From IMG/VR virus record IMGVR_UViG_3300007722_000005, positions 1 to 64,000 of that record: 64,000 bases of DNA; one strand, given 5' to 3'. Shown here piece by piece: positions 6,977-37,452 of this stretch (positions within the stretch are counted from its first letter, which is position 1; each line of letters begins with the position of its first letter). A program made the position numbers and the translations under genes. This DNA is from a virus. The notes below the pieces were generated by a model that saw only the letters and a program-made list of their open reading frames with translations, had not been told where the DNA came from and did no database searches.

Positions 6977-7414
6977 TTATATCTCGTTGTACCGGTTCAT
7001 CTTGAAGATCTTCATAACGTCCTCCGCAAACTTGCGGTTAGCTGGTGTCAGAAGAAGGACTCGGTTGTGTTGGAGGGTCGTCACACGTGTACGTGTATCA
7101 TCAATGCATCGACTTTCGACGTCTAATTTGCGCAGAAGTCGGTGAGCCATATTCCCATAATAATCGTACTTCTCTCCTGTTTCCTTGACGACCGTCTGGA
7201 ATACGGGATCAGGTCGGCGGACTTGTACGAATCGCCGCAGAATCATTTTTTGGAGCTTGCATGAGTAGAACATCGTGGCCGGGATGTACCCAATGTACAC
7301 AGCTTCACGGATTTCTTCGTAGCCGGTGCATGTCGTGAAAGTAATTACTGGAGCACCACACTCTATTGTCTCCCCGAGAAAATTCACATACATATCTTCT
7401 ATACGTTTGCCCAT
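6977..7414 (-). CDS. Hypothetical protein
   Basis: SD AAGGAG; promoter TTGCAC-17-TATACT at about 7438-7467. Confidence 0.6.
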   Translation of the reverse strand: MGKRIEDMYVNFLGETIECGAPVITFTTCTGYEEIREAVYIGYIPATMFYSCKLQKMILRRFVQVRRPDPVFQTVVKETGEKYDYYGNMAHRLLRKLDVESRCIDDTRTRVTTLQHNRVLLLTPANRKFAEDVMKIFKMNRYNEI

Positions 7415-7522
7415 TTTGAAACTCCTTAATTGTAGATAGTATAATACAAAATTACGAAAAGTGCAACTCTGGGCGACGAATTAGTTCTTCACTTCTGGTT
7501 CTACGTACGTCCAATATCTCAT

Positions 7523-7957
7523 TTAGTCTCTCATCAATATAAGTTCTACAATTGCTTGATCAAATTGTTCTTGAGTTTTTGCAAAAGAGTCAGTCCAGCG
7601 CGGATTTTCAGAATAAGGAGCAACAACACGTTTGATACCAGCATTAATCACCATGCCAGCACACGTCTCACACGACATAAACGGCCACGTGTAAAGAGTG
7701 CAGTTGGATACATCGCGACGTGCAAAGATGATTGCGTTGCGTTCACAGTGCACAATTTGTGGATATTTAATATCTCTGTTTGCATACCTCTCTGGTGAAT
7801 CATCAACACCTCTTGCAAACCCGTTGTATCCAATAGACACAAGAATGTTTGTTTTGGTCTCTGCAATCACTGCACCAGTTTTTGTGCTAGGATCTTTTGA
7901 CCAACCAGCAACGTGTTCTGCAAGCCTTAAGAATTTTCTGTCCCAGTTTGTGATCAT
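7523..7957 (-). CDS. cd: dCMP deaminase
   Basis: SKDPSTKTGA, GYNG, HCERNA, CETC zinc motifs. Confidence 0.9.
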   Translation of the reverse strand: MITNWDRKFLRLAEHVAGWSKDPSTKTGAVIAETKTNILVSIGYNGFARGVDDSPERYANRDIKYPQIVHCERNAIIFARRDVSNCTLYTWPFMSCETCAGMVINAGIKRVVAPYSENPRWTDSFAKTQEQFDQAIVELILMRD

Positions 7958-8235
7958 AATATATCTTCTCCGTCATCTAGATCATTATTTAACTTTTCTT
8001 GCAGTGTTTTGAATGTTGTGGGGTGCATTACGAAAGCGCTTTCTGCTATAACATATACATTAGGGTCAGGATATGGCTCCTGCACAAATTTGTGGCTCCG
8101 CCAAGGTGTCCAAGAAAGCAGCTGCTCTTTCCATGAGCGGCTAACTTTCACCTCCTTATACTTAACAAGGTTTGGATTGGTTGTTACTGGTAGACCATTA
8201 AGAAACACTGTTTGCCCTTTCACGGATCTCACCAA
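7954..8235 (-). CDS. Hypothetical protein
   Basis: ORF in operon. Confidence 0.45.
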   Translation of the reverse strand: MVRSVKGQTVFLNGLPVTTNPNLVKYKEVKVSRSWKEQLLSWTPWRSHKFVQEPYPDPNVYVIAESAFVMHPTTFKTLQEKLNNDLDDGEDIL

Positions 8236-9577
8236 ACGTCCAACGTTTGGTTATTACCCCATTCTCATACACAGTTTGCAGCGCATCCGACTTACCAGGA
8301 ACGAACGGCCCCGAGGTGTAGTTGCCATCAATATCTTTGAACAATGTGACGCGGCCTTTCATAGAGCGCTTACCAGCGTCAGTGACAGGATCTTTGTACA
8401 CATCACGCCACTGGTTGTTTACTTGAATCGCAGAACACTTCATTGCAAATTTCTGAGTGTCGCGGTCAATTTGTTGCAACAGAGCACCACCCATACCAAA
8501 AGCAACGTTGTCGGCACTGAGACCCATTGAAGTGATCTTTTCGAGTATCGATCGAATAGTGTCTTCGTTAATACCATCACCTTGAATAACTCGTACATTG
8601 TTCAGTACTCGGTATCCTTTTGAGTTTGTTTGTGTTCCATATGCATCAGCCAGTAATGCCAGGCAATCGGCGACGACAGTGGTAGGATCACCCGAGTCTG
8701 GACGAATGACAACCGTAGCGCCAGAATCGATAACTTCCTGCTTCAGAGTGCGTCCCCAGTGATTCTCAACCGCTTGATAGATGTTGTAGCTATCAGATAC
8801 AACAGCAAGAACGCTACCAGGCTTTGCAAATTGCTGCAGCATGTTACGATACGCTTGTACTTCGTTCTCACGACCCCACGAAGTAATTGTGCTGTGTTCT
8901 GCTGCAGGAATACTGAACGACGGCTTCTTTGCTCCGTAATATTTTGAAGCATACAGAGCACCGGTAACGTTGTCTGATCCCATAAACCCAGTAGCAAGGT
9001 GAGCGGAACCACCAATACCTGCCGATTCAAACGAACTAACACCACGTGCACCGAAATCGTGCAGTTTGAAATCGAGTCCCCCTACATTGCCAGTCTTTTC
9101 CAGATACTGTTTGATCAGCCGGCGAATTGACAGACTATTTGTTGCCACGGTTGTTCCATACCACGTTGCTCGGAGAATTGCAGTTTCCAACCATGTAGTT
9201 GCCCACGCAAATTCTTGGTCTGTGTTCTCGACAGTGACCAGCACATTATTAACTGGGACAACAGACCCCTCAGGGGCAGCTCGAATGCGGACTGGCATGA
9301 ACCCGCTGTGCTTGATCAGCATGCGCAGCCAACCTTGTTTGTTGAATGGTTCGCCATGATCATTCCAAAATTCGGCGGCTTCATCAATGTCACGTTTTGT
9401 GAACGGAGTCTGCAGCACATCCTGCAAGTAAATCTGCAGACCGTACATCATTGTCCATGGGTATTTTCCACCTCGAGATTCAACGTACGAAAATACATTC
9501 TGAGTGCCAGGGGGATACTGCAGCCACATTGGCGACTTATAAGAGTCAACGTTCAGTGCTATGTTTTTAATGTTCAT
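8198..9577 (-). CDS. nadV: Nicotinamide phosphoribosyltransferase
   Basis: DSYK, HDFGARG, SIPAAEHS, VSDSY, IRPDSGDP, QGDG motifs. Confidence 0.93.
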   Translation of the reverse strand: MNIKNIALNVDSYKSPMWLQYPPGTQNVFSYVESRGGKYPWTMMYGLQIYLQDVLQTPFTKRDIDEAAEFWNDHGEPFNKQGWLRMLIKHSGFMPVRIRAAPEGSVVPVNNVLVTVENTDQEFAWATTWLETAILRATWYGTTVATNSLSIRRLIKQYLEKTGNVGGLDFKLHDFGARGVSSFESAGIGGSAHLATGFMGSDNVTGALYASKYYGAKKPSFSIPAAEHSTITSWGRENEVQAYRNMLQQFAKPGSVLAVVSDSYNIYQAVENHWGRTLKQEVIDSGATVVIRPDSGDPTTVVADCLALLADAYGTQTNSKGYRVLNNVRVIQGDGINEDTIRSILEKITSMGLSADNVAFGMGGALLQQIDRDTQKFAMKCSAIQVNNQWRDVYKDPVTDAGKRSMKGRVTLFKDIDGNYTSGPFVPGKSDALQTVYENGVITKRWTFGEIRERANSVS

Positions 9578-9637
9578 TTATAAAGATCCTTTATAGTTTA
9601 TTAGCTTGCAGTCTACCCACAAGGTTGTTTTCCAACA

Positions 9638-10636
9638 TCATACGCCCCCAAGCAAATACGTAATAATATCGAAATGATCCTCAAATATTTCTTCAGGATT
9701 CAGATCCGCAATTGGAATCCACATCGCTTTTGCCGCATCATCACCTCCTTTGACTGGTGGCAATTTCCCGTCGGGCAACCGAATCAAAAACGCGTGGGTG
9801 ATCGTTCTACCACGGAGGCTCCGCGTTGGGTGATCAAACACGTACCTATTGACAATACTTCCCTTGAGAACTGGTGCTGGCACCTTGAGACGCGTTTCCT
9901 CACGAAGCTCGCGCAGCATTCCATCTTCAATTCGTTCGGCTTGGTTAACGAATCCACCAGGAAGTGCAAGCAGACCCTCACCAGGTGCAGCACCTCTCAC
10001 AACCATCAAGACGTGACCTGACTGAACTACTACAGCATCAGAGGTTACGAACGTTGGTGCATACGGAGCAGCAAGCCAGGATTTTTTGTACTTCTTGATG
10101 TGCTCGTATTCCCGCGCCAGCTTCAGGTAATCTTCGCCTGCACGGAAGAGACTCAACGCAGCGTTTGTGGTATTCGGTAGTGCACCAGAGTAGAGTTTTG
10201 GGCTGGCACCGGAGAAGTAGAGATCACGTACGCTGGTAGCACTAACGCTATCATCCATCTTGTGATCAATGCGACTCCACTGGGGAAACATTCGCAGATA
10301 GAATGAAGTCTCGTCTTTCTCATGTCCAATCAGCTCAATAATATCGAGTTCGCTGGTATTTTGATTGACAATCTTCTGGACGCCCGCTGCCCATTGTTGA
10401 TCGTTGTAACTGATATCACGCAGAGGTTCAATTACTAGCTTGTCGCCATAAGGATAACAGGCGAGGATCATATTCTTTCTCTCCTGGAACGTCCAGGGAT
10501 TTTTGATGCTCCGCGGCTGATTAGCACTGCCGATGATTATGATGATTTTGTTTGCACCTATCATCGCACTATCAATCAGACGCTTATGCTCTGAGTGGAA
10601 AGGTTGAAATCTACCAATTAAAACTTTGACGCGCAT
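9638..10636 (-). CDS. Bifunctional NMN adenylyltransferase / Nudix hydrolase (NadM-Nudix, NatV-like)
   Basis: GRFQPFHSEH, NPWTF, SAT, Nudix box GG...RELREET, SLRGRTIT. Confidence 0.9.
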   Translation of the reverse strand: MRVKVLIGRFQPFHSEHKRLIDSAMIGANKIIIIIGSANQPRSIKNPWTFQERKNMILACYPYGDKLVIEPLRDISYNDQQWAAGVQKIVNQNTSELDIIELIGHEKDETSFYLRMFPQWSRIDHKMDDSVSATSVRDLYFSGASPKLYSGALPNTTNAALSLFRAGEDYLKLAREYEHIKKYKKSWLAAPYAPTFVTSDAVVVQSGHVLMVVRGAAPGEGLLALPGGFVNQAERIEDGMLRELREETRLKVPAPVLKGSIVNRYVFDHPTRSLRGRTITHAFLIRLPDGKLPPVKGGDDAAKAMWIPIADLNPEEIFEDHFDIITYLLGGV

Positions 10637-10882
10637 AGAATCTCCTTCTCTGCTGTTATGAAGATTAGTCTATCTAGTCTTCTGTTATGAATATTACAAC
10701 TGTTGCAATCAGAAAAATCCAGAGCCCTAATGAAGCAGCTACTTCTGTATTTCCCCTCTCAATAAAACCGCCAACAGCTACTGAGAGAACTATAAGTGCT
10801 ATCAGAAAGACGCTGTTAATCAATTTGTTCATGTTTATACTTCTAGTGAAATGTGCTAGGCCTATTCATTATAATATAACTA

Positions 10883-11797
10883 TCACTTAAAGTCAAGCAT
10901 TCTTTCTACGGGAACACGGGCTTTTTCAATCACCTCATCAGTCAGGTAATCAATCCGATCACCTATTCCTCTGATAGCAGCTTGCGCCGATTCCAGTGTG
11001 TTCATCTTCATGAACGGACAGGAATTACACTGACATCCTTTGTACGTGGGAGCCTGTCTGATATCCAGATCAGGTCGAGCTTCTCTCATATTGAAGAGCA
11101 AGCCGTCTTCGGTAGCAACGTAGATGATTGCATCGGTATCTGTATTCTTCACCCAGTTCAGCATCTTGTGTGTTGAACCAACTACATCAGCCTGTTTCAG
11201 AACGGAGAGAGGAGATTCAGGATGTGAAAGAAGAATCTTCTTCCTTCCAGGATCCTGCATGAAGGCGATAGCCAGCTCTTCAAGATTGAATTGATCATGT
11301 ACGTCACATACTGCAGACCAAAGAGGTATCTTCCAGTTGTTCGTGTAGTTGAGGTATGCACCCATGTTACGATCGGGAGAGAAGATCACACTCTGACCTT
11401 TATCGTAGATGTGCTTGATGACCTCTTCAACGTTCCTCGAGGTGACAATCCAGTCACTCAGAGCTTTGTGCTCTGCAGATGTGTTGATGTACGCTACGTG
11501 TTGAATATCAGGGTTGCGCGCTCTGTGCATGTAGACCCACGAGCGCAATCCAGTAGTACCTTCGATCTCTGTTTGCTCAACGAGCGAACAAGATGCTGCT
11601 AGAGTCGGAATGATTACTTCGGAATTGGGGTTAAGTATCTTCGCGGTTTCAGCCATGAAGCGAACACCGAGGAAGATAATTTGATCTGCTTTCGCTTCTT
11701 TAGCAGCAAGCGCGAGATCAAGCGAGTCACCGACGTGATCGGCGAGTTTCTGTACTTCTGGAACTGTGTAGTAATGTGCAAGTATGATTTTGCGCAT
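10883..11797 (-). CDS. nadA: Quinolinate synthase
   Basis: ILAHYY, GDSL, GVRFMAET, CSL, YINT, CDVH, HPES, CPFMKMNT. Confidence 0.9.
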   Translation of the reverse strand: MRKIILAHYYTVPEVQKLADHVGDSLDLALAAKEAKADQIIFLGVRFMAETAKILNPNSEVIIPTLAASCSLVEQTEIEGTTGLRSWVYMHRARNPDIQHVAYINTSAEHKALSDWIVTSRNVEEVIKHIYDKGQSVIFSPDRNMGAYLNYTNNWKIPLWSAVCDVHDQFNLEELAIAFMQDPGRKKILLSHPESPLSVLKQADVVGSTHKMLNWVKNTDTDAIIYVATEDGLLFNMREARPDLDIRQAPTYKGCQCNSCPFMKMNTLESAQAAIRGIGDRIDYLTDEVIEKARVPVERMLDFK

Positions 11798-11932
11798 AGG
11801 AAATCCTCCCATGGTTGATAGCTTCCATCTATTTGGTCGCTATATGTACTTATAATAAAGTGGATCGCTTCTTTCGTTTGACCTCGTGTGGTTTTGATGT
11901 ACAGCTGTTAAAATCCTCTGTAATATCGCTAA

Positions 11933-12649
11933 CTAATCCCACAACGCTTCGAAATATTTTCCAAAAAGCTTAAACCCGTTTGTTATGCGTTCTTGGTATG
12001 CTTCGCGTCCTTCCCAATCAAAGACTTTGGTATCGTTAGGGCCTTTGATCATTTTAAACATACCATCCTCAAGATGCAGAAATTGGGTGTCGCTTATACC
12101 GGAAGCAAACTGATCTTCCCAGCTATCATCGCACTTGCTTTCAAACGCGAAGATCATCTCGTCCAGAACCCAATCCCAACGCTCAAAGTGTTTGTCGTCT
12201 ACCTCACCTCGAGCCTTCTGTTCGTCGGTAAGATCTTCGCCGCGTAGATTTTCTGGCACGTCTGACAATTCAACAAACGGAGCCCCGTGTTTAGTTTCTT
12301 TTAGTTGTTTAAGCATGGGGAGAATAATAGGTGCAAGTGTAGAATCCATACCCCACGTGTCCCAACGATCAATGTGTACTTTGATTGTGCGGTTTCGTTT
12401 GCTTTCGATCCAGCTCAAGAAACGACTAAGCCAGGTGTCGGCGCGGTCACCATTCAAACCACGGACATCACCAACTTTAGTGTCTGGTTGTACACTACCG
12501 TAGGTGAGCCATTCACCAAACTGGTGAACCCAATAAGGTTTTGATTTGATCCCGTGCTCGTCTTTCACATCCTTTACCCAAAAGCAAAGGATTTCGGCCA
12601 ATTGATACGGCCCAATATAATTTTTATACGGTCCTATTTTAACTCTCAT
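11933..12649 (-). CDS. Conserved phage hypothetical protein
   Basis: DTWGMD...HGAP...WDWVLDEMIFAF...LFGKYFEALWD. Confidence 0.7.
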   Translation of the reverse strand: MRVKIGPYKNYIGPYQLAEILCFWVKDVKDEHGIKSKPYWVHQFGEWLTYGSVQPDTKVGDVRGLNGDRADTWLSRFLSWIESKRNRTIKVHIDRWDTWGMDSTLAPIILPMLKQLKETKHGAPFVELSDVPENLRGEDLTDEQKARGEVDDKHFERWDWVLDEMIFAFESKCDDSWEDQFASGISDTQFLHLEDGMFKMIKGPNDTKVFDWEGREAYQERITNGFKLFGKYFEALWD

Positions 12650-12793
12650 TTGGGGAATACTCCTTAGTCATAGATCAAGTTCCACAATCCAAACCTCTAT
12701 GCTACAGCAAAAGTTAAAAAAGGTCAACACATAAATACCCCGTGTGAGAGCGATGTTGTGCTCCGCGTTTTATCATTTCAACGTGGAGAAAAC

Positions 12794-13057
12794 ATGGAAT
12801 ATTTTAAGATTTTGGCGGAATTAGGGTTCCCTATTGCCGCCGCTGCCGCAAGTGGGTATTTCGTCTTCCTTACCCTCAAATTTATTTTGGCTGGTGTCCT
12901 TTCATCTATTAGATCAATGTCACTAATGATCATTGCTCTTGGGCAACGTGTCGAAAAAATGAATGACGAGCTGATACGAATTGATACCAGCACCTCCGAA
13001 GTGCTAGATATACCACCCGACACAAGTAGAATTTCCCGCAAACAGGAGAACACATAA
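12794..13057 (+). CDS. Small membrane protein (paralog A)
   Basis: GFPIAAA transmembrane motif; late-like promoter CATAAATA at 12730. Confidence 0.65.
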   Translation: MEYFKILAELGFPIAAAAASGYFVFLTLKFILAGVLSSIRSMSLMIIALGQRVEKMNDELIRIDTSTSEVLDIPPDTSRISRKQENT

Positions 13058-13138
13058 TAAAATGCGAACGACAACTTTTATTATTAGTGCAGTCGTTTTA
13101 GGGTTGGTAATCGGCTATATTTTAGAAAGGATAGTTTT

Positions 13139-13378
13139 GTGGATACTATAATAATTTTAATCAACAAATATGGCTTTCCAATCGCTGCTGCTGGCGGAAT
13201 GGGGTATTTGATTTACTACGTGTGGTTGTGGGCCACCACAGAAGTAAAACCTGTTCTCTCTGAAGCAACGAAGAACCTGGTCGGACTAATTGACCAGGTT
13301 CGTGTTCTTGATGGGGATTTGATTAGACTCCAGCAAAAAGTCAGTGTCTATATCGCGCTGCGGCATAAATTTAAGTAA
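13139..13378 (+). CDS. Small membrane protein (paralog B)
   Basis: YGFPIAAA...DLIRL, similar to paralog A. Confidence 0.65.
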   Translation: MDTIIILINKYGFPIAAAGGMGYLIYYVWLWATTEVKPVLSEATKNLVGLIDQVRVLDGDLIRLQQKVSVYIALRHKFK

Positions 13379-13558
13379 TTACTCCTCGTCGTCGTCGTCG
13401 TCATCACTCTCAAGTAAATCTTCGCCACAGAACGGGCAAAATTGCACGCCCATATCGTAATCATCCGCTATCTTGTTGACTGCAAATTCCGTGTCACAGT
13501 TGAAGCATACGTGAACATCTGGTTCGTCGGCGCTGTGCGGAAATAATGATGGTTGCAT
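13379..13558 (-). CDS. Small zinc-ribbon protein with acidic tail (59 aa, below ORF-track cutoff)
   Basis: CFNC...CPFC...DDDDDEE directly after nrdB. Confidence 0.65.
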   Translation of the reverse strand: MQPSLFPHSADEPDVHVCFNCDTEFAVNKIADDYDMGVQFCPFCGEDLLESDDDDDDEE

Positions 13559-13560
13559 AG

Positions 13561-14553
13561 TTAGTCTTTTTTATCTGATATCCATACTTGATTCCAATCA
13601 CCACTCAGCGACCCTTTTGCGTAATCAGTAGAACGATTCTCAAAAAAGTTTGTGTGTGTTGGCGCGTTAATAATTCCTTCTACCCAAAGAAGCGGATTCT
13701 TCTTAACCTTAAAGATGCCTTTGAGGCCAAGTGAAATCAATCTCCGATCTGTTATATATCTGATGTAGCTTTTGACCTCGTCACTCGTTAACCCCTCCAA
13801 CGCACCGAGCCTAAAACATAGATCGATAAACTTATCTTCGAGATCTACCATCTTCTCAGCTATCGCGTATATTGCAGACTTCAATTCATCGTTCCATATG
13901 TCACGATTCTCTTCAACGAATGTTCGGAATAGTTTGATCATTGCCTCTGCGTGCATTGTTTCATCAACAATAGACCATGTTATGATCTGCCCCATCCCCT
14001 TCATCTTTCCGTGCCTCGGAAAATTCAGCAACATAATAAAACTAGAGAATAGCTGCATCCCTTCTGTAAAAGCAGAAAACGCTGCTATCTGTTGCGCAAT
14101 TTTGTTTGGGCCCAGCCCCGATAACGACATGAAATAGTCGTGCTTCTCCCTCATCTCTGTATATTCAAGGAATTCGTTGTATGTAGAGTCCGGCATTCCA
14201 AGCGTCTCAATCAAGTGGCTATACGCTGCGATATGCATCGCTTCACGAGCCGCAAATCCACACAGCATCATCCGCACTTCTGGTTGCGGGAAATATGGAA
14301 GGTAGTTGTCAACATATCCACCAGCAACGTCAAGATCACTCTGTGTGAAGAAACGGAAGATGTTTGTCAAGAATGTTTTCTCTTCTTTGGACAGCTTCTT
14401 CTTCCAGTCCTTGACGTCTTCCATCATTGGCACTTCACCGAACAACCAATGCGATTGTTCGTGTCTTAGCCACGCATCGTATGCCCAAGGATAAGCAAAA
14501 GGTTTGAATGTTTGGCGTTTGTCAGTAAGTTTAATTTTAGGTTTTGGTGACAT
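13561..14553 (-). CDS. nrdB: Ribonucleotide reductase class Ia beta subunit
   Basis: FFTQSD, EAMHIAAY, EGMQLFSSF, DETMH, NFFE. Confidence 0.95.
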   Translation of the reverse strand: MSPKPKIKLTDKRQTFKPFAYPWAYDAWLRHEQSHWLFGEVPMMEDVKDWKKKLSKEEKTFLTNIFRFFTQSDLDVAGGYVDNYLPYFPQPEVRMMLCGFAAREAMHIAAYSHLIETLGMPDSTYNEFLEYTEMREKHDYFMSLSGLGPNKIAQQIAAFSAFTEGMQLFSSFIMLLNFPRHGKMKGMGQIITWSIVDETMHAEAMIKLFRTFVEENRDIWNDELKSAIYAIAEKMVDLEDKFIDLCFRLGALEGLTSDEVKSYIRYITDRRLISLGLKGIFKVKKNPLLWVEGIINAPTHTNFFENRSTDYAKGSLSGDWNQVWISDKKD

Positions 14554-30659: not shown

Positions 30660-30754
30660 TGGTGCCCCCGCCCGGATTCGAACCGAGATCATGCGCCAAT
30701 CTAGCGCCAATGCCGAGGTATAAGCTCGGAGTTTTACCGTTAAACTACAGGGGT
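30660..30754 (-). tRNA. tRNA-Ile(UAU) with long extra arm
   Basis: CCGAG CT TAT AC CTCGG; T-loop TTCGAAT; encoded CCA. Confidence 0.8.
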
Positions 30755-30756
30755 TT

Positions 30757-30831
30757 TGGAGCTCCAGGACAGAGTTGAACTGTCTTTCGCACTTTACCAA
30801 AGTGCAGTAATAACCATTATACTACAGGAGC
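30757..30831 (-). tRNA. tRNA-Thr(GGU)
   Basis: Cloverleaf, CCA. Confidence 0.85.
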
Positions 30832-30908
30832 GTTAATAAGTCCAGCCTAAAACTTTCATCAATTTCGTTTTGACTCTAATGCTGGTGCGTTAATTATCCA
30901 CATAATTT

Positions 30909-30981
30909 TGGCACCCCATGAAGGAATTCAACCTCCGCAATCAAGGGTAGAAACCTCGACGCCGACATCATCGGATGGGGC
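30909..30981 (-). tRNA. Atypical tRNA-Arg(UCU), mini D-arm
   Basis: 7-bp acceptor, CCGA TGATG TCGG D-hairpin, loop TT TCT AC, CCA. Confidence 0.65.
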
Positions 30982-31484
30982 ATTGTTAAAAGTTAAAATC
31001 CTGTTATTTGTACAGCTATAAAAAATATCCTATAGCAACTATAACGAACCACTCTGTCAGTGAAAATTGGTAACACCAACTCGGCAGCTTGAATGCAATA
31101 TATTCAAATATTTTGTCAAACATTTTAGTAGTGCCTTTCGTTTGGATGAAGTCGCCAAAATAACCGGCTCGCTTTCTCTGGCGCTTTGTGGTAAACATCA
31201 AACCAATATTCGTGCACAATGTCTAGCTTCTGGTTCTTCTGCTTGTGCCCGATCCAATAGGGGTTCGAATGGCCACGAGGGCGCCACGTTTTTTCGTGGT
31301 AATTCCTGCGTAGTTGCCTGTCGAGGAATCTATACCCCCACATATCAGACGTTCAGGTGCTTCTTGAGAGATTCGAGCTCGCGCTGTTTCCGAGCAACAT
31401 ACTTCTCATTATCAGGGTAAGCTATTTTGAAACGCTCAAGTGCACCTTTACGACGTTCCTGACGACGAATAAAACTATTCTTGA

Positions 31485-31874
31485 TCATTTTAGCTGGTCC
31501 TCCATCTCATTAAATGCTCGACTAAGTTGTACCGATGCTATCTGAACAAGTTTTGGATCCTTGAATCCAAAATTATCAGGTAGATTTAATGTTATCACGT
31601 GTTTGTCGGCAAGGTCGAATTCGCTCGAAGTTTCCTCGAAATTCTCTTTGTTGACAAACACAACAGCATCGGACCAATGAATCAGAACGTCGTCAGCGTG
31701 GATCAACGCAAATGTTTTTGTTGACCCTGCTGCACGTGTGTTGAAGTTGAATGGATCGTTTGATAGAATCCAAGCGACGGTCGGGGAGCGTAGCAGTCCA
31801 GCTGAGCACACACAAAGAACCTTTAACGAAGTTCCTTGGTGAGAATTAGTAGAATTGTGTTTTCTGTTATTGAT
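31485..31874 (-). CDS. LMW protein-tyrosine-phosphatase-like protein (probable AUC start)
   Basis: VLCVCSAGLLRSPT CX5R loop; SD AAGGAG followed by ATC. Confidence 0.75.
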   Translation of the reverse strand: MNNRKHNSTNSHQGTSLKVLCVCSAGLLRSPTVAWILSNDPFNFNTRAAGSTKTFALIHADDVLIHWSDAVVFVNKENFEETSSEFDLADKHVITLNLPDNFGFKDPKLVQIASVQLSRAFNEMEDQLK

Positions 31875-31968
31875 GATGAACTCCTTTTTGATGAAGGTTT
31901 CGTAACTGTTTGAATATGACTATTATACGTTTTTTTTACAAAAGGTCAACAATTTTAAATTTCAAAAG

Positions 31969-32043
31969 TGGAGCAGGTGGCGGGGATCGAACCCGCGACA
32001 TTCACGTTGGCAACGTGGCATTCTTCCGCTGAACTACACCTGC
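31969..32043 (-). tRNA. tRNA-Gly(GCC)
   Basis: Cloverleaf, U73, CCA. Confidence 0.9.
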
Positions 32044-32077
32044 GTTATTACATTTCTTCGTGTGTGCTTACGCTTGT

Positions 32078-32155
32078 TGGTACCCCCGGTCGGATTCGAA
32101 CCGACACTGTGCAGGTTTTGAATCTGCTGCCTCCTACCAATTGCGCTACGGGGGC
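32078..32155 (-). tRNA. tRNA-Leu(CAA), short variable loop
   Basis: Cloverleaf, CCA. Confidence 0.85.
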
Positions 32156-32167
32156 ATAGTTTTTGAT

Positions 32168-32238
32168 TGGTACCCTGAGTGAGATTCGAACTCACAAAAG
32201 CTGGTTTAGGAAACCTGCTCCCGTCCATTGGTCAGGAT
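32168..32238 (-). tRNA. Atypical tRNA-Arg(CCU), reduced D-arm
   Basis: Loop TT CCT AA; normal T-arm; CCA. Confidence 0.65.
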
Positions 32239-32239
32239 G

Positions 32240-32632
32240 TTATGTATGTATTATTGCTGAGGCGATATACTTCTGTATCTTAGCAGGTACGTTATGTGCT
32301 TTATTCATTACATCGGTCATTGTGAACTCGCTCGTGATTCCTTCTCGTGCGAAACTATATAGCGTTCCACCTGGGTGCTCAGTAGCGAGTATCTTCAACA
32401 TACCGGCATCAGTAGCTGGAGCGTTGACTGCTGTTTTCTTGATCTTTACCGCCTGTGCAATGCCCATTGTATCTCGGAGCATAGACATCACCTCAGAGGG
32501 ATCAGCATTGCGCATTACAGACAACACTTTACCGACGAGGACGTTGATGGCCTTATCTTTTCCAGACTTTACTTGCTCAACGGTCTTTTGATTGTCTGCA
32601 ATGACTTGGGTAATTAGTTCTTCTATTTTCAT
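32240..32632 (-). CDS. Protein with GatB/YqeY C-terminal-like segment
   Basis: VEQVKSGKDKAINVLVGKVL...ADPSEV. Confidence 0.55.
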   Translation of the reverse strand: MKIEELITQVIADNQKTVEQVKSGKDKAINVLVGKVLSVMRNADPSEVMSMLRDTMGIAQAVKIKKTAVNAPATDAGMLKILATEHPGGTLYSFAREGITSEFTMTDVMNKAHNVPAKIQKYIASAIIHT

Positions 32633-32640
32633 ATGAATTT

Positions 32641-32730
32641 TGGCGGAGAGTAGAGTAGTCGAAACCCATTCCATTCCTGGAACCAACTGTTTTCGAGGCA
32701 GTGTCGTCAATCCCTGACAATTTACTCTCC
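32641..32730 (-). tRNA. (8/4) tRNA-Ser(CGA)
   Basis: 8-bp acceptor GGAGAGTA/TACTCTCC, 4-bp T-stem, long variable arm. Confidence 0.8.
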
Positions 32731-32907
32731 ATTAAGTATTTTAGCGTCTTTCTCGCTGAGAGGAGTGCAACAATCTACCTTCAACTCTTCGTATGGAAGC
32801 TTTCTGAATATACGATCCCAACCTTCACGATAAGCATTGGTCGGTTGTTTCGTTTTCAGTTCGTCGCCAGTGATGTCGTTTTTTGATGTCATAATCTATT
32901 TGTGTAG

Positions 32908-32983
32908 TGGTAGTGACCGTGGGAGTCGAACCCACCTATTCTTCCTTATGAGGGAAGCACATAAGCCGCTCTGTCAGGTCACT
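32908..32983 (-). tRNA. tRNA with CAU anticodon (Met or Ile2)
   Basis: CTTCC CT CAT AA GGAAG; CCA. Confidence 0.8.
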
Positions 32984-32988
32984 GCTGT

Positions 32989-33062
32989 TGGTGGTTCCAA
33001 GAGGAATCGGACCTCTATATTCGCCATGTCAAAGCGACACTCTACCATTGAGTTATGGAACC
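32989..33062 (-). tRNA. tRNA-Val(GAC)
   Basis: Cloverleaf, CCA. Confidence 0.8.
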
Positions 33063-33069
33063 TAATTTA

Positions 33070-33145
33070 TGGGGTGATCGACGAGATTCGAACTCGCGCT
33101 ATCTGATTCACAATCAGAGGTGCTGACCTTTACACTACGACCACC
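33070..33145 (-). tRNA. tRNA-His(GUG)
   Basis: G-1:C73, cloverleaf. Confidence 0.9.
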
Positions 33146-33151
33146 ATTGTT

Positions 33152-33224
33152 TGGTAGCGGCCGAGGGTAACGATCCCTCTCCCATCGCAGGTTATGAGCC
33201 TGGAGTCTACCACTAGAAGCCGCA
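33152..33224 (-). tRNA. Atypical tRNA-Met(CAU), mini D-arm, 1:72 mismatch
   Basis: TCTA GTGG TAGA D-hairpin; CAGG CT CAT AA CCTG; CCA. Confidence 0.65.
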
Positions 33225-33246
33225 ATAGTCTTCTTTACTTCAATTC

Positions 33247-33323
33247 TGGTGCGCGGGCAGAGAATCGAACTCTGCAAATCCCACTTGTAAGGAGGGTGGT
33301 GTCACCAGCTACGCTCCCCGCGC
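33247..33323 (-). tRNA. tRNA-Val(UAC)
   Basis: Loop CT TAC AA; CCA. Confidence 0.75.
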
Positions 33324-33379
33324 TTTGCGTGAAGTTATAAGGTTGTCAAGCCAACCTTCTCAAATCATGAGATGAAAAT

Positions 33380-33456
33380 TGGTCGGAGTACAAGGATTCG
33401 AACCTTGGACCCTCTGCTCCCAAAGCAGATGCGCTGCCAGACTGCGCTACACTCCG
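33380..33456 (-). tRNA. tRNA-Pro(UGG)
   Basis: Canonical cloverleaf. Confidence 0.92.
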
Positions 33457-33461
33457 AAACT

Positions 33462-33535
33462 TGGTGCCCCTTGACGGAATCGAACCGCCGTAAGCTGCTT
33501 ACAAAACAGCCGTAATACCATTATACTAAAGGGGC
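33462..33535 (-). tRNA. tRNA-Thr(UGU)
   Basis: Canonical cloverleaf. Confidence 0.9.
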
Positions 33536-33555
33536 AAATTATATTAATTACTTTT

Positions 33556-33590
33556 CTAAGTCAACTACTCGACCGCTGAGCTATCGAGTA
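33556..33590 (-). pseudogene. Remnant 5' half of a tRNA
   Basis: TAGCTCAGCGGTCGAGTA D-arm plus GTTGACT, no 3' half. Confidence 0.45.
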
Positions 33591-33607
33591 ATAATTCTAT
33601 TTATAGT

Positions 33608-33804
33608 CTACGTTTCTTCCATTCCTGACGCTCCAGAGAGGCTTACACAATTTGGATCCTCTGCAATTACCGCAACAAACCGCATGTGGATGCTTCGCAA
33701 CGTTGCTGCAATCGAAAGAGCGTCGCTCAAATCGCTGGCAACGTGGCCTTGTGTTACACTATCAAGCGTTGTCCAATATACTTTATATTCAGCTTTGTTC
33801 ATAT
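33608..33804 (-). CDS. Hypothetical protein (start probably MNKAEY)
   Basis: KVYWT...FVAVIAEDPNCV. Confidence 0.5.
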
Positions 33805-34045
33805 GTTTTACTTGTGACACTATCGTTTAAGCCCGCTCAGGCCCGCACCCTCGAGGTATGTTGACCATATTTGCAAGACTCCTATGTAGCTTTCATAGGC
33901 GTAACGCCACAAGTAAAACATTCGGCTCAGTACACCGAGAGGTATGATGAGTATCCTTTATGGTGTAGGGGACGTCCAGGCACATCACCGCGGTACACCA
34001 TTTCATCTTCTTTTGTTGCACTAAGGCGAAGAATCTTCAGAAGGT
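33803..34045 (-). ncRNA. Candidate structured RNA
   Basis: 20-bp helix 33803-33822/33902-33921 with G-U pairs; further hairpins; own promoter upstream. Confidence 0.5.
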
Positions 34046-34119
34046 AACCTTTTCAACAATGTCTATTATACTACCATTTAAAGAATAGTCAACACTTTTC
34101 TTTTTATTGTTAATTCGGC
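34046..34119. repeat. 74-bp direct repeat (copy 1) containing minus-strand promoter TTGACT-16-TATAAT
   Basis: Copy 2 at 35548-35621, one mismatch. Confidence 0.9.
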
Positions 34120-34710
34120 TGTGTACTTCTCTTTAATTCTGTGAAGCTGTCCCGTTGCCCACTCCAAATTCCTGATGTATTGGTGTTGTTCAGAAGTTTG
34201 TTGAACACCAACAACGGTGTTTAACCGTCGGTCAAAAAACTCTTCTGGCATGTTGTCGTGTGTTATTATAGTTCCTCTTGTAGGGAAGAATTGAACATAT
34301 CTGCGCATGAATTCATTCCACTGTTCAATATGTTCAACAGGAGCTGTAAAATTAAATAGTTGAATTTCTGTTGATATCCTGAAACCAAACTGTTTTGCAA
34401 GAAGGAAGCTGAGTCCTGCTTGAACCATATCTTTTTCGACAACGAAAATTTCGTGCCGTGTTGTTTTCATCACCTTTTTGTACCACGCAATTGATTGTGG
34501 GAATCGGCAAAGATGATGGCCATGCAACTTTATAACAGTGTTTCCATTGTTCAAGCGATGAAGTAACCAATATTTTCGAAATACTGATGCAAAATTATCA
34601 TCGTAACGAGGTGCAAACGGCTCATAAATTTTGTTTTGTCGTTTGCACGAATGAAAAATAGCGCTACCATCTGTGCGGCGGTGGCTGTAAATTATTACTG
34701 GGTTTTTCAT
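34078..34710 (-). CDS. Sulfotransferase/P-loop-like hypothetical protein under a late promoter
   Basis: SHRRTDGSA...YEPF; TATAAATA at about 34734-34741. Confidence 0.5.
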   Translation of the reverse strand: MKNPVIIYSHRRTDGSAIFHSCKRQNKIYEPFAPRYDDNFASVFRKYWLLHRLNNGNTVIKLHGHHLCRFPQSIAWYKKVMKTTRHEIFVVEKDMVQAGLSFLLAKQFGFRISTEIQLFNFTAPVEHIEQWNEFMRRYVQFFPTRGTIITHDNMPEEFFDRRLNTVVGVQQTSEQHQYIRNLEWATGQLHRIKEKYTAELTIKRKVLTIL

Positions 34711-34742
34711 AACACATCCTTTTTGAGATGTATTATTTATAA

Positions 34743-34819
34743 TGGTGCGAGTCATGGGAGTCGAACCCACACTGACCAGGTTTTAAATCTGGCGCCTCTT
34801 CCAATTGGGCTACACTCGC
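34743..34819 (-). tRNA. tRNA-Leu(UAA), short variable loop
   Basis: Cloverleaf, CCA. Confidence 0.85.
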
Positions 34820-34825
34820 GAAACT

Positions 34826-34900
34826 TGGAGCCCTGTGACAGATTCGAGCTGTCCTCTGAACTTTACGAAAGTTCTGTGTCGCCGTCTACACTTACGGGGC
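34826..34900 (-). tRNA. tRNA-Thr(CGU)
   Basis: Cloverleaf, CCA. Confidence 0.8.
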
Positions 34901-34906
34901 AAAACT

Positions 34907-34982
34907 TGGTGCGTCCCACAGGAATCGAACCTGTTTCAATGGCTCTTCAAACCACCGCTATGACCACATCAGCTAGAGACGC
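34907..34982 (-). tRNA. tRNA-Phe(GAA)
   Basis: Cloverleaf, CCA. Confidence 0.85.
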
Positions 34983-35018
34983 AAATATCTCCGTTACACT
35001 ATTTGTAGCTATTAAATT

Positions 35019-35092
35019 TGGAGACTCGAGACAGAGTTGAACTGTCATCTTCGGGTTTGCAATCCGAGGCACGGCCGTTATACCACCGAGTC
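35019..35092 (-). tRNA. tRNA-Cys(GCA)
   Basis: Cloverleaf, U73, CCA. Confidence 0.85.
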
Positions 35093-35098
35093 ATTGTT

Positions 35099-35175
35099 TG
35101 GTGCGCGAGGTGGGACTCGAACCCACAGAACCTACCCTCTCAAGATAGTATGTTTACCAATTTCATCACAAGCGC
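35099..35175 (-). tRNA. tRNA-Leu(GAG), short variable loop
   Basis: Cloverleaf, CCA. Confidence 0.85.
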
Positions 35176-35184
35176 GTTGTTAGT

Positions 35185-35264
35185 TGGTGGAGTGAAAGAG
35201 AGTCGAACTCTAAGGCTACTAGTATGAGCGACCGCAAGGTCGCCGCCGCGATCCGAACCACCCC
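35185..35264 (-). ncRNA. Ala-identity tRNA-like RNA resembling an isolated tmRNA tRNA-like domain
   Basis: G3:U70, A73, CCA, T-loop TTCGACT, stemless D region TTCGGATC. Confidence 0.55.
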
Positions 35265-35269
35265 GTATT

Positions 35270-35342
35270 TGGTACCCCATGAAGGAATTTAACCCTCGCA
35301 ACTGAGCTTCGAAGGCTCTGCGCCGACATCATCGGATGGGAT
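35270..35342 (-). tRNA. Atypical tRNA-Arg(UCG), mini D-arm
   Basis: Same CCGATGATGTCGG hairpin as 30909; loop CT TCG AA. Confidence 0.65.
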
Positions 35343-35345
35343 ATT

Positions 35346-35417
35346 TGGCAACGGTGCACGGAGTCAAACCGTGTTGTATTTCCTTCAGAGGGAAAACCAG
35401 CTTCAAGCTTCACCGCA
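35346..35417 (-). tRNA. Atypical tRNA-Gln(CUG), mini D-arm
   Basis: AGCT TGA AGCT hairpin; TTTCC CT CTG AA GGAAA; CCA. Confidence 0.65.
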
Positions 35418-35425
35418 ATTGTTCT

Positions 35426-35502
35426 TGGTGCCCTAGAGGGGACTCGAACCCCTAAAATCTACATTCTAAGTGTAGCACGTATGCCAATTCCGTCACCAGG
35501 GC
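35426..35502 (-). tRNA. tRNA-Leu(UAG), short variable loop
   Basis: Cloverleaf, CCA. Confidence 0.85.
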
Positions 35503-35547
35503 AATATTATTTAGATGTTATTAGTGTTGGTGTTTCCACGTTCACTC

Positions 35548-35621
35548 AACCTTTTCAACAATGTCTATTGTACTACCATTTAAAGAATAGTCAACACTTT
35601 TCTTTTTATTGTTAATTCGGC
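35548..35621. repeat. 74-bp direct repeat (copy 2), internal array promoter
   Basis: Matches 34046-34119. Confidence 0.9.
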
Positions 35622-35642
35622 CTTGCGGCTCTCGCGTTGTAC

Positions 35643-35719
35643 TGGTGGGGGTAGAGGGATTCGAACCCACAATGACCCAGATTCAAAGTCTGGTACGCTT
35701 CCAGTCGCGTGTTACCCCT
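35643..35719 (-). tRNA. tRNA-Gln(UUG)
   Basis: CCAGA CT TTG AA TCTGG; CCA. Confidence 0.8.
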
Positions 35720-35725
35720 ATTGTT

Positions 35726-35799
35726 TGGTACTCCGGGAAGGAATCAAACCTTCGTGGGCCCCTTATCAAGAGGCTATCTTATCATTAGATGACCGGAGC
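35726..35799 (-). tRNA. tRNA-Ile(GAU)
   Basis: Cloverleaf, CCA. Confidence 0.8.
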
Positions 35800-35805
35800 A
35801 TATTT

Positions 35806-35895
35806 TGGCGGAAAGCAGAGCGATCGAAGCCCAAACCCTTTCAGGTTCCAACCGATTAGCAATCGGCGCCGCACTCCATGCGCAATTTACTTTCC
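35806..35895 (-). tRNA. (8/4) tRNA-Ser(GCU)
   Basis: 8-bp acceptor, 4-bp T-stem, long variable arm. Confidence 0.8.
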
Positions 35896-35900
35896 AAATA

Positions 35901-35976
35901 TGGTCTTTCAGGTGAGACTCGAACTCACGAAATCTTCGCCCCAAACGAAGTGGTATAGCCGCTAACCGACTGAAAG
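35901..35976 (-). tRNA. tRNA-Pro(UGG), second copy
   Basis: CTTCG TT TGG GG CGAAG; CCA. Confidence 0.8.
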
Positions 35977-35984
35977 ATATTCAT

Positions 35985-36140
35985 TCCGTGTTTTCTATAG
36001 CACGGAGTATAACTTACCGGAGCCCATATAACCGTCATCAAGTGACTCGGTCTTATGAACTCCGACGTAGATTTTATTATTCACGAGTTAGTGATTTGAT
36101 AGAGGCAATATTTCATGCCTCTATCGATAATAGATCTACT
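35985..36140 (-). ncRNA. Candidate three-domain structured RNA
   Basis: Helices GTAGATCTATTAT/ATAATAAAATCTAC, GATAGAGGCA/TGCCTCTATC, GGAGTTCATA/TATGGGCTCC, TCCGTG/CACGGA. Confidence 0.5.
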
Positions 36141-36145
36141 ATGTG

Positions 36146-36217
36146 CTCCATCTCCTGGGATCGAACCAGGGACCTAGCGATTAACAGTCGCTTGCACTAC
36201 CGCTGTGCTAAGATGGA
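36146..36217 (-). tRNA. tRNA-Asn(GUU), CCA not encoded
   Basis: Canonical cloverleaf ending G73-CAC. Confidence 0.85.
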
Positions 36218-36223
36218 ATAACT

Positions 36224-36318
36224 TGGCTCCGCAGAGAGGCTTCGAACCTCTATATTGCGCCTTTCGGCCTTTACGTCTCATTAACAGTGAGGTCTCTTAC
36301 CAATTAGAGTACCGCGGA
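36224..36318 (-). tRNA. tRNA-Asn(GUU) with long extra arm
   Basis: Loop CT GTT AA; about 24-nt variable region with GCC GAAA GGC; CCA. Confidence 0.75.
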
Positions 36319-36369
36319 ATAAATCTTTATAATTCATATATCTCGTTGGAAATACATCAATTATAACGA

Positions 36370-36448
36370 TGGTGGGAGCGCCGGGATTCGAACCCGAATC
36401 TATCAGATTAAAAGTCTGTTGTGTTAAATCCGTTGACACCACACTCCC
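36370..36448 (-). tRNA. tRNA-Lys(UUU)
   Basis: Cloverleaf, CCA. Confidence 0.85.
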
Positions 36449-36518
36449 ATTTGTTTACTACGTTTACCATCTTTCGATTTTCGTTTCATATCAAGATCCT
36501 TTTTTGATAAATATTAAC

Positions 36519-36677
36519 ATGCAAAAACTACAAAATTTTAAAGCCTTCTTTCAGCGCAATAAAAAGCAGGCTGAAGCCGAACCCCACACTGGCCCCGATC
36601 GTCGGAAAGGACCACGTCGCACTGTGACGAAGATTAAAACAAACTATACCGCGTGGCATGATCGCCGTGCTGCATAA
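36519..36677 (+). CDS. Small basic protein antisense to the tRNA array
   Basis: ATAAATA late-like promoter just upstream of ATG; MQKLQNFKAFF N-terminus. Confidence 0.45.
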   Translation: MQKLQNFKAFFQRNKKQAEAEPHTGPDRRKGPRRTVTKIKTNYTAWHDRRAA

Positions 36678-36680
36678 TGC

Positions 36681-36761
36681 CAAGAGTGTCCTAGGCCACT
36701 AGACGATCTCGCACACGCCAGTAGCGTGGGTCGAGTGGGATTTGAACCCACGTCTCTCTTG
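36681..36761 (-). ncRNA. Circularly permuted tRNA-like RNA (YrlA-like module) A
   Basis: Order T-arm, closed acceptor-like hairpin, D-arm; closing stem CAAGAG/CTCTTG. Confidence 0.65.
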
Positions 36762-36764
36762 TTC

Positions 36765-36840
36765 TGGCGCCGAGGACGGGGATTGAACCCGCCTGAGAAT
36801 GATCGACAGTCATCCTGTATCCCCAGATAGCTACCTCGGC
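36765..36840 (-). tRNA. tRNA-Asp(GUC), atypical D-arm
   Basis: Loop CT GTC GA; G73; CCA. Confidence 0.7.
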
Positions 36841-36871
36841 AAATATGGAGTTGCGTAAACGCAACATTGTT

Positions 36872-36999
36872 TGGGACGCGATGGTGAGGTTTTCACTCAC
36901 GACGATTTACAAGATCGCTATCAGCTTTACCCCTCATGGTTGTAACCCCACTACTCATAAAGCATTCCTGTGGACTCGGTCACCACAGCTTCACCGCGT
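36872..36999 (-). ncRNA. Oversized (128 nt) CCA-ending tRNA-like RNA
   Basis: 8-bp acceptor ACGCGGTG/CATCGCGT, T-like arm GTGAG/CTCAC, three internal arms. Confidence 0.65.
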
Positions 37000-37000
37000 T

Positions 37001-37074
37001 TGGAGCACCTGCGCGGATTCGAACCGCGTTCAATAGTTTGGAAAACTATGTCCTCTCCCAGGAGCGACAGATGC
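37001..37074 (-). tRNA. tRNA-Gly(UCC), atypical D-arm
   Basis: ATAGT TT TCC AA ACTAT; CCA. Confidence 0.75.
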
Positions 37075-37108
37075 ATTAGTTGAATGTCGACTATTTATAA
37101 TATTGTTT

Positions 37109-37183
37109 TGGCGGCCCTGCACGGAATCGAACCGCGTTGGCTGGTTTTGGAGACCAGTGCATCACCTTTCATGCTTCAGGGAC
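37109..37183 (-). tRNA. tRNA-Trp(CCA)
   Basis: CTGGT CT CCA AA ACCAG; G73; CCA. Confidence 0.85.
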
Positions 37184-37194
37184 ATAATTTAATT

Positions 37195-37283
37195 TGAGCT
37201 AAGACAAAAAGGACTCGAACCTTCGCTTTCGCCAGAACCAGTTGTGCACCTACGTCTATAAACGTTTCCACAACCTTCTCAGC
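37195..37283 (-). ncRNA. T-arm-containing tRNA-like RNA without CCA
   Basis: GCTGAGA/TCTTAGC closing stem; GAAGG TTCGAGT CCTTT; long irregular hairpin. Confidence 0.45.
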
Positions 37284-37351
37284 AACATGCAAACCCTACA
37301 TTATATCAAATTCACACAACAATTATAGTTGCAAGTGTGAACCTCAAAACT

Positions 37352-37435
37352 TGGTGGTTGTGGTAGGATTCGAACCTACTCAGCTAGTGGGCCACTGATT
37401 TACAGTCAGCTTATCTCTCCAAGGAATGCACAACC
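37352..37435 (-). tRNA. tRNA-Tyr(GUA)
   Basis: Loop CT GTA AA, long variable arm, CCA. Confidence 0.8.
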
Positions 37436-37452
37436 ATTGTAATACGAAATCT

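Follow-up and report, generated by a model that had tools for sequence, protein, structure and literature searches.

A conserved two-hairpin leader RNA before the NAD genes of a T4-like phage, other phages and bacteria, a candidate translational operator

The NAD locus and its leaders

The window considered here is the whole stretch of 64,000 nucleotides that was analysed, positions 1 to 64,000 of the IMG/VR virus record IMGVR_UViG_3300007722_000005, which is 92 kb long and about half complete. It comes from an uncultured T4-like phage and has all of its genes on the minus strand. Three genes of nicotinamide adenine dinucleotide (NAD) metabolism, nadA, nadM-Nudix and nadV, each possess a leader with two small hairpins, and these leaders are the subject of this work. 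In the order of transcription the locus comprises an open reading frame (ORF) of unknown function (12649-11933), nadA, the 52-codon orf52, nadM-Nudix, nadV and a dCMP deaminase gene (Table 1).

The products of nadV and nadM-Nudix together form the NARP2 pathway, by which phages rebuild the NAD destroyed by host defence (10.1101/2024.02.11.579819). The NARP2 operon of phage KVP40 caused excess NAD, consumption of phosphoribosyl pyrophosphate (PRPP) and toxicity in E. coli (10.1101/2024.02.11.579819). Homologues of NadM-Nudix were found in 466 phage records. The third gene, nadA, is a quinolinate synthase homologue that adjoins these salvage genes in the phage, and NadA homologues at 60% identity adjoin nadM in Betaproteobacteria as well (loci L163, L181 and L184). 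Neither a NadB-type (PF00890) nor a NadC-type (PF01729) protein gave a match over the cut-off within the 92-kb record. The start codon of nadA was picked by the position of the Shine-Dalgarno (SD) sequence and of hairpin 2.

All six hairpins lie on the minus strand, as do the genes, where a preliminary description of this DNA, made from the sequence alone, had placed them. From the end of the hairpin 1 loop to AUG there are 33 nt for nadV, 31 nt for nadM-Nudix and 29 nt for nadA; the nadA loop is the six-nucleotide AAUAGA closed by an A-U pair. Hairpin 2, with the SD in its loop and its end at or in the start codon, is found in all three leaders, and hairpins of this type stand at just 3.3% of window ATGs, which is the background rate. 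The preliminary description had spoken of a stem that sequesters the SD. A hairpin does lie at the ribosome-binding site (RBS), but the SD core sits in its loop and not in its stem; the stems take up the SD flanks and, for nadA and nadM-Nudix, also a part of AUG. In the nadM-Nudix leader a 4-bp stem surrounds GGAGA and a 3-bp outer stem takes in the UG of AUG.

Each 71-nt leader alone folds only modestly better than its shuffles (z -2.06, -1.84 and -1.88), and the minus strand of the window has 24 hairpins with a TAGA loop when stems as short as 3 bp are counted. For these reasons the window alone could not settle the question, and the evidence had to be comparative. A scan of the window for intrinsic terminators, whose mark is a G+C-rich stem with a U run behind it, listed none of the six hairpins.

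Table 1. Genes, promoter and leader hairpins of the NAD locus (positions in the window).
Feature	Position	Strand	Description	Support or energy
nadV	8198..9577	-	nicotinamide phosphoribosyltransferase, 459 aa	Pfam NAPRTase 2e-60, NAMPT_N 9e-21
nadV hairpin 2	9579..9595	-	7-bp A/U stem around SD AAGGAU, ends 1 nt before AUG 9577	
nadV hairpin 1	9605..9623	-	7-bp stem with two G-U pairs, G-C closing pair, loop GUAGA	-6.2 kcal/mol
nadM-Nudix	9638..10636	-	bifunctional NMN (nicotinamide mononucleotide) adenylyltransferase / ADP-ribose pyrophosphatase, 332 aa	Pfam CTP_transf_like 2.8e-8, NUDIX 1.6e-16
nadM-Nudix hairpin 2	10633..10653	-	core 10649-10637, extendable to 10653-10633; AUG 10636	-5.9 kcal/mol
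nadM-Nudix hairpin 1	10660..10682	-	9-bp stem with one mismatch, G-C closing pair, loop AUAGA	
orf52	10674..10832	-	small ORF; TAG stop 10676-10674 inside the 5' arm of nadM-Nudix hairpin 1	
Promoter	10868..10896	-	sigma70-like, 11/12 consensus matches; would drive orf52-nadM-nadV	promoter scan
nadA	10883..11797	-	quinolinate synthase homologue, 304 aa from ATG 11797	Pfam NadA 4.5e-81
nadA hairpin 2	11795..11813	-	7-bp stem pairs upstream CAU with start codon 11797; SD in loop	-6.8 kcal/mol
nadA hairpin 1, variant	11818..11843	-	outer 5 bp, 2x2 internal loop, inner 3 bp	-7.1 kcal/mol

Conservation of the element in relatives

Relatives of NadM-Nudix and NadV were taken from IMG/VR, from cultured phages and from bacterial genomes. 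Even contigs with a protein of only 38-45% identity have hairpins with the same loop, on unrelated stems, before nadM, and Xanthomonas phage LucasX and Synechococcus phage BUCT-ZZ01 have such hairpins before both genes. The preliminary description had made its proposal depend on the presence of the motif in the leaders of homologues, and more than 100 distinct copies were found there.

A census of phage loci gave 76 distinct copies, 54 of them with the loop and closing pair G-AUAGA-C; the variants have G at loop position 1, A or C at position 2, or U at position 5. In 70 of these 76 copies AUG lies 24-39 nt beyond the loop-closing C, and the mode is 31. By consensus, hairpin 1 has a covarying stem of 6-9 bp, a G-C closing pair and the pentaloop R-H-A-G-W, mostly AUAGA. 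The nadV and nadM-Nudix loops of the window, both closed by G-C, fall within this definition. A loop-blind census of strong upstream pentaloop hairpins returned G-AUAGA-C as the commonest class; the second class, SD loops closed by A-U, is hairpin 2 and was seen across taxa.

In 56 leaders aligned in a fixed register, hairpin 1 is 87.9% paired and its covariation score is 0.91, against 0.18 in shuffles; seven of the eight pairs change on both sides, while the closing G-C is invariant. These copies had been chosen for pairing, and therefore the bare 7-mer (loop plus closing pair) was counted as well. It has 117 distinct occurrences up to 110 nt upstream of nadV, nadM or nadA and 76 in the other 2.48 Mb. 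At least four of six flanking pairs accompany 94 of the 117 leader 7-mers but 15 of the 76 found elsewhere, and several of these 15 are further real copies. For 73 distinct leaders from phages and bacteria, hairpin 1 is 88% paired with a covariation score of 0.77 (0.19 in shuffles), and pairing drops to 28-44% when the partner columns are slid; both hairpins taken jointly are 84% paired, against 29-44% with slid partners.

Hairpin 1 of these 73 leaders contains 46 G-U cells, and at the bacterial loci 43 of 45 matches lie on the strand of the gene. The G-U pairs and the strand bias indicate a sense-strand RNA and not a DNA palindrome. The suggestion that the stems differ around a conserved loop because the signal acts as RNA is thus borne out. 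Loop positions 1 and 5 change jointly (A,A to G,U), which suggests a cross-loop pair beneath a three-base apex N-A-G.

Two covariance models were trained without any sequence of the window: R1 holds hairpin 1 only, and R2 holds hairpin 1, linker, hairpin 2 and AUG. The R1 search of the window was unfiltered, 128 kb being searched. It ranked the nadM-Nudix leader first (21.4 bits) and the nadV leader second (18.3 bits); the nadA leader did not reach E 10. With R2 the nadV leader came first (34.3 bits, E 8e-5, over 9575-9629) and the nadM-Nudix leader second (32.3 bits, E 2e-4, over 10634-10686), followed by a weak third rank in the window for the nadA leader (15.0 bits, E 0.79).

R1 also matched a 7-bp hairpin with loop AUAGA and a U-A closing pair at 58211-58241 on the minus strand (14.9 bits, E 0.41). 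It lies inside an ORF (58019-58333), no SD and AUG follow it, and it is probably a chance match.

Specificity and distribution

In five phage genomes of 49-318 kb every match better than E 0.1 is at NAD genes, and the same is true of all matches with E<0.1 in whole phage genomes up to 344 kb. Complete genomes of seven more cultured phages, all absent from the training set, gave matches with E<0.5 exclusively at the start of nadM or nadV; the copies belong to Synechococcus phage B3, Xanthomonas phage RTH11 and Ralstonia phage RsoM2USA, and the other four phages have none. These searches, together with the 7-mer counts, agree with the earlier proposal of a signal which the NAD genes share, and they show that it is specific to these genes. 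No copy was detected at the NAD genes of cultured T4-like phages, KVP40-like ones among them (ValKK3, Aeh1, Miro, EJP2 and PG07). Extra R1 matches in L117, L118 and L120 are terminator-like or lie inside ORFs, have no SD and AUG, and were taken as chance.

Among bacteria, where presence and absence were judged from the leader sequences themselves rather than by whole-genome R2 searches, the element was found in 43 of 80 NadM loci. The carriers are Gamma-, Beta- and Campylobacterota-type proteobacteria and cyanobacteria, and cultured carriers also include Psychrobacter, Budvicia aquatica and Pseudoalteromonas luteoviolacea. In the nadV leaders of Psychrobacter (L145:4083-4165, L156:4124-4209, L161:4047-4135 and others) an extra G+C-rich hairpin stands between hairpins 1 and 2; the distance from loop to start is 60-100 nt, and the start codon is GUG.

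At three bacterial loci hairpin 1 stands before an SPFH/Band-7 gene downstream of the NAD genes (L125:5638-5668, L129:5559-5589, L179:4049-4079). The regulon may include this gene too, although it has no evident connection with NAD. At three phage loci the full two-hairpin leader precedes a small unknown ORF, of 155 amino acids in L073 (520-574), 67 in L076 (887-941) and 108 in L082 (557-610). Here the small ORF is the first gene of an operon that includes nadM, and nadM has no leader of its own.

It is instructive to compare the distribution of the element with those of the two NARP2 proteins. A sample of 401 Gammaproteobacteria genomes contained 14 with NadV, six of them with a full NadM-Nudix and eight without. 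In none of the eight does nadV have the element in its leader. Where nadM and nadV form an adjacent pair, two genomes of four carry it; of the other two, one belonged to the training set beforehand and one (G311) fell outside the check. Two Gammaproteobacteria with unlinked nadM have no element before nadV. Strong copies (41.3, 32.1 and 25.3 bits) precede nadV in three genomes where it is remote from nadM, and training had used none of these. Two carriers have no NadV detectable by protein and Pfam search: G418 has canonical copies before nadM and an SPFH gene, and G419, an isolate, has a variant copy before nadA. NadM at first seemed to be missing from five phage contigs, but in each of them it lies 3-4 kb away. 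The absence from NadV-only genomes, the NadV-less carriers and the contigs with a nearby NadM indicate that the element follows NadM-Nudix and not NadV, and the strong copies at unlinked nadV genes speak for a signal of the regulon and against a side effect of gene adjacency.

The position of nadA

A leader common to all three NAD genes of the window had been proposed. This stands for nadV and nadM-Nudix; the nadA leader is a degenerate variant and not an equal third member. Its position 29 nt from AUG and the canonical copies before nadA in two relatives support its membership. The closest relative (L026, with NadA 75% and NadV 77% identical) carries a canonical copy in front of each of the three genes, and a Burkholderiales genome (L163) has one before a nadA 60% identical and adjoining nadM. 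Silvimonas and Andreprevotia have variant loops before nadA and the same AUG-pairing hairpin 2. This hairpin 2 design, which is that of the window, is shared by the nadA leaders of L163, L181 and L184, the latter two with variant loops. The AAUAGA loop recurs before nadV in L083. No copy was found in the leaders of two phage nadA homologues that are more distant (50% and 41% identity). The canonical copies of L026 and the Burkholderiales, and the Silvimonas and Andreprevotia variants, indicate a diverged and probably peripheral member in this lineage. The three leaders of the window can be regarded as copies of one conserved cis-regulatory RNA which marks an NAD regulon: nadM-Nudix, nadV and, here, nadA.

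Known RNA families and literature

A cmscan of positions 7000-14000 against Rfam 15, at E up to 10, gave no match at the leader sites and listed neither NAD+-I nor NAD+-II, in accordance with the preliminary description, which had found no likeness to these two riboswitches. The NARP2 paper mentions no leader element (10.1101/2024.02.11.579819). Two surveys of the Breaker laboratory describe the pnuC and pntA motifs and nothing before nadV or nadM, and our full-text literature searches found no published account of the element. It is a real, widespread and uncatalogued leader RNA of NAD genes.

What reads the element

If the element is a signal of the NAD regulon, then we can ask: at which level does it act, and what reads it? 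We consider a translational operator, read by a protein that reports NAD status in trans, to be the best answer, with a probability of about 55%. The structure, its conservation, its specificity for the NAD genes and its co-occurrence with NadM are observations; translational control, its direction and the identity of the reader are what we infer. Control at the level of translation, as the preliminary description supposed, fits the fixed distance to AUG and the hairpin at the RBS.

The mechanism could be as follows. Hairpin 2 would keep the RBS in a weak hairpin, which must melt for 30S binding. Hairpin 1, at about -24 to -45 with its loop about 31 nt from AUG, would stand at the upstream edge of the region bound by the 30S subunit. 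Its invariant G-C-closed pentaloop would be the recognition site of the trans-acting reader, and a protein bound there would hinder 30S docking or hold hairpin 2 shut. Leaders with hairpin 2 alone are common, and so hairpin 1 most likely adds repression. The binding of the reader would lower translation when NAD is sufficient and limit a pathway that drains PRPP and ATP. Such negative feedback fits the reported cost of NARP2 (10.1101/2024.02.11.579819). In Psychrobacter the inserted sequence would, by forming its own hairpin, keep the two ends of the leader close together.

NadM-Nudix is the best candidate for the reader, being the only protein always present beside the element. This constant co-presence is joined by the nature of its domains, which are homologous to known sensors: that of NadR is an NMN adenylyltransferase domain, and that of NrtR is a Nudix domain. 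The co-occurrence favours NadM-Nudix over NadV and is compatible with the guess of the preliminary description, which had named the same protein. The protein may double as an NAD- or ADP-ribose-sensing RNA-binding repressor that reads the G-AUAGA-C hairpin and tunes the NARP2 module and its bacterial counterparts, but we put this forward tentatively, as a specific proposal more likely to fail than the general one. CsrA was set aside as the reader; hairpin 2 resembles the GGA-loop site that this protein binds, but hairpin 1 has no GGA.

Several observations weigh against the proposed operator and its reader. The genomes are not independent of one another, and the co-occurrence with NadM may only mirror the common descent of a mobile nadM cassette. 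In the NadM alignment, carriers and non-carriers of the element are not cleanly set apart by any column, the highest mutual information being 0.33. Many genomes with both NadM and NadV, including KVP40-like phages, lack the element, and we know of no RNA-binding activity or domain in NadM-Nudix. In 53 of 91 phage leaders hairpin 1 stands at the very 5' end of the transcript, which would also fit a role in stability. Finally, repression is a direction that we infer rather than observe. On a test with trees, the loop type (..AGAC or ..AGUC) needs one change on the NadM tree and six on the NadV tree. However, ..AGUC occurs only directly before nadM and was thus inherited with it, so this apparent co-evolution is uninformative.

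The most serious alternative is a very small riboswitch, in which hairpin 1, alone or with hairpin 2, binds NAD+, NMN, ADP-ribose, nicotinamide or PRPP and alters access to the RBS. The genes form a metabolic regulon with one end product, and the presence of the element in phages and several bacterial phyla requires a reader that is either universal or travels with the element. Very small riboswitches such as guanidine-II and HMP-PP (hydroxymethylpyrimidine pyrophosphate) do exist. An RBS hairpin may also serve as the expression platform, as in NAD+-II, which acts through the RBS (PMC8632094). On the other hand, conservation outside the SD is confined to seven nucleotides and does not extend to the linker, one clade alters loop positions 1 and 5, and no Rfam family matched. 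The conserved loop is on one hairpin only, which makes a loop dimer of the guanidine-II type unlikely. A pseudoknot of the hairpin 1 loop with the start region, hinted at by UCUAU at the nadM-Nudix AUG, was rejected: in the 73 leaders the mean longest run of complementarity between loop and downstream leader is 2.96, against 2.97 in shuffles. With no excess complementarity, the loop is free for a factor in trans. Moreover, nadV never carried the element in the genomes without NadM. We regard a riboswitch as improbable, perhaps a one-in-several case. The preliminary interpretation, which had offered an operator and a small riboswitch side by side, is thus supported in part: the RNA-level signal, its sharing by the NAD genes and the lack of a match to NAD+-I and NAD+-II hold, while the riboswitch is disfavoured.

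Rather less likely is an element of mRNA stability or processing with no NAD-specific reader, that is, a 5'-terminal stem-loop against decay that depends on the 5' end, or a nuclease site. For the 53 of 91 distinct phage leaders mentioned above, the loop-closing G follows the end of a sigma70-like -10 box by 12-28 nt (mode 16), so that the stem begins within a few nucleotides of the predicted start of transcription. A protective stem, however, needs no invariant loop or closing pair and would not be restricted to NAD genes. In the window and in many bacterial operons hairpin 1 is also internal to the transcript, either after orf52 or between nadM and nadV. Where it is 5'-terminal, protection of the 5' end may be a role additional to control.

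A double-stranded DNA operator, a palindrome bound by a transcription factor that responds to NAD (NrtR or NadR, for example), is very unlikely. The regulons of these factors do have inverted repeats by the promoters of NAD genes. Here, however, the arms vary freely around a fixed centre, the reverse of a dimeric operator with its conserved-arm palindrome on both strands; as DNA, and on the opposite strand, the 46 G-U pairs would become mismatches; the orientation strictly follows the gene, and many copies are intercistronic and far from promoters. Chance, that is, unrelated small hairpins with a common loop word of 4-5 nt, could be suspected from the single-leader z of about -2, the 24 TAGA-loop hairpins and the E of 0.79 for nadA, but it is already refuted for the nadV and nadM-Nudix leaders, which independent models rank as the first two of 128 kb and which belong to a set of over 100 covarying copies that occupy the same position upstream of orthologous genes.

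Upstream translation and other features of the window

The promoter in Table 1 is the only good one in that region, and nadM-Nudix hairpin 1 overlaps the stop codon of orf52, a product for which no Pfam family matched. In the closest relative (L026:1750-1861) an upstream ORF with a CxxC motif runs across hairpin 1 and has its stop codon in the nadM SD. If such upstream ORFs are translated, orf52 here and the CxxC ORF there, the leader element of nadM would melt.

ARAGORN found 30 tRNA genes in the window, at 55844-55918 (minus strand) and 30660-38105, one of which has the anticodon CUA and would read UAG. Just upstream of the tRNA array, a strong hairpin at 38460-38494 lies between A-runs and U-runs; R1 scores both of its strands, and it looks like a two-way terminator. 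On the minus strand the translation of 57487-57987 resembles, by eye, a QueD-type 6-carboxytetrahydropterin synthase, and that of 58303-58881 a phosphoribosyltransferase with a PRPP-binding motif.

Significance and comparison with known systems

The element probably sets the output of costly NAD enzymes. NARP2 is expensive and can be toxic, and a dedicated, shared RNA signal would be its first known layer of control. It would represent either a new operator read by an enzyme or a new, very small class of riboswitch for NAD metabolism. If NadM-Nudix proves to be the reader, the system would correspond at the RNA level to NadR and NrtR and would parallel, in bacteria and phages, aconitase and its iron-responsive element (IRE). 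The element flags further members of the regulon, namely nadA, SPFH genes and small ORFs upstream of nadM. Being short, clearly covarying and present in cultured systems, it is directly testable.

Like NAD+-I (the nadA motif) and NAD+-II (the pnuC motif), the element is a leader RNA of NAD genes, nadA included. It differs from both in having neither an aptamer with an internal bulge nor an SD pseudoknot, in its far fewer conserved nucleotides and in its other set of genes (nadM and nadV). Guanidine-II (mini-ykkC) also consists of very small hairpins with a fixed loop and closing pair, free stems and a place near the RBS. It needs two hairpins with the same loop that pair with each other, whereas the NAD leader has the loop on hairpin 1 only, and this loop is not self-complementary.

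The regulons of NadR, NrtR and NiaR follow the same logic. These regulators use a helix-turn-helix (HTH) on double-stranded DNA, in contrast to the sense-strand RNA hairpin described here, and NadM-Nudix has no HTH by Pfam.

Operators read by proteins next to the RBS are also close to the element. The E. coli thrS operator of threonyl-tRNA synthetase (ThrRS), those of T4 gene 32 and gene 43, that of the MS2 coat protein, and the IRE bound by IRP1 (aconitase) are small hairpins with a fixed loop on a free stem, and several of them are read by an enzyme that thereby regulates its own production. The NAD leader shares the small hairpin, the fixed loop, the free stem and the location within the initiation region. 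The IRE loop has a cross-loop pair that leaves a triloop, and the joint change at positions 1 and 5 suggests the same for the NAD leader. Its loop sequence matches none of these operators, and its reader is only a candidate; unlike them it places one signal before several genes, nadM, nadV, nadA and SPFH, in both phages and bacteria.

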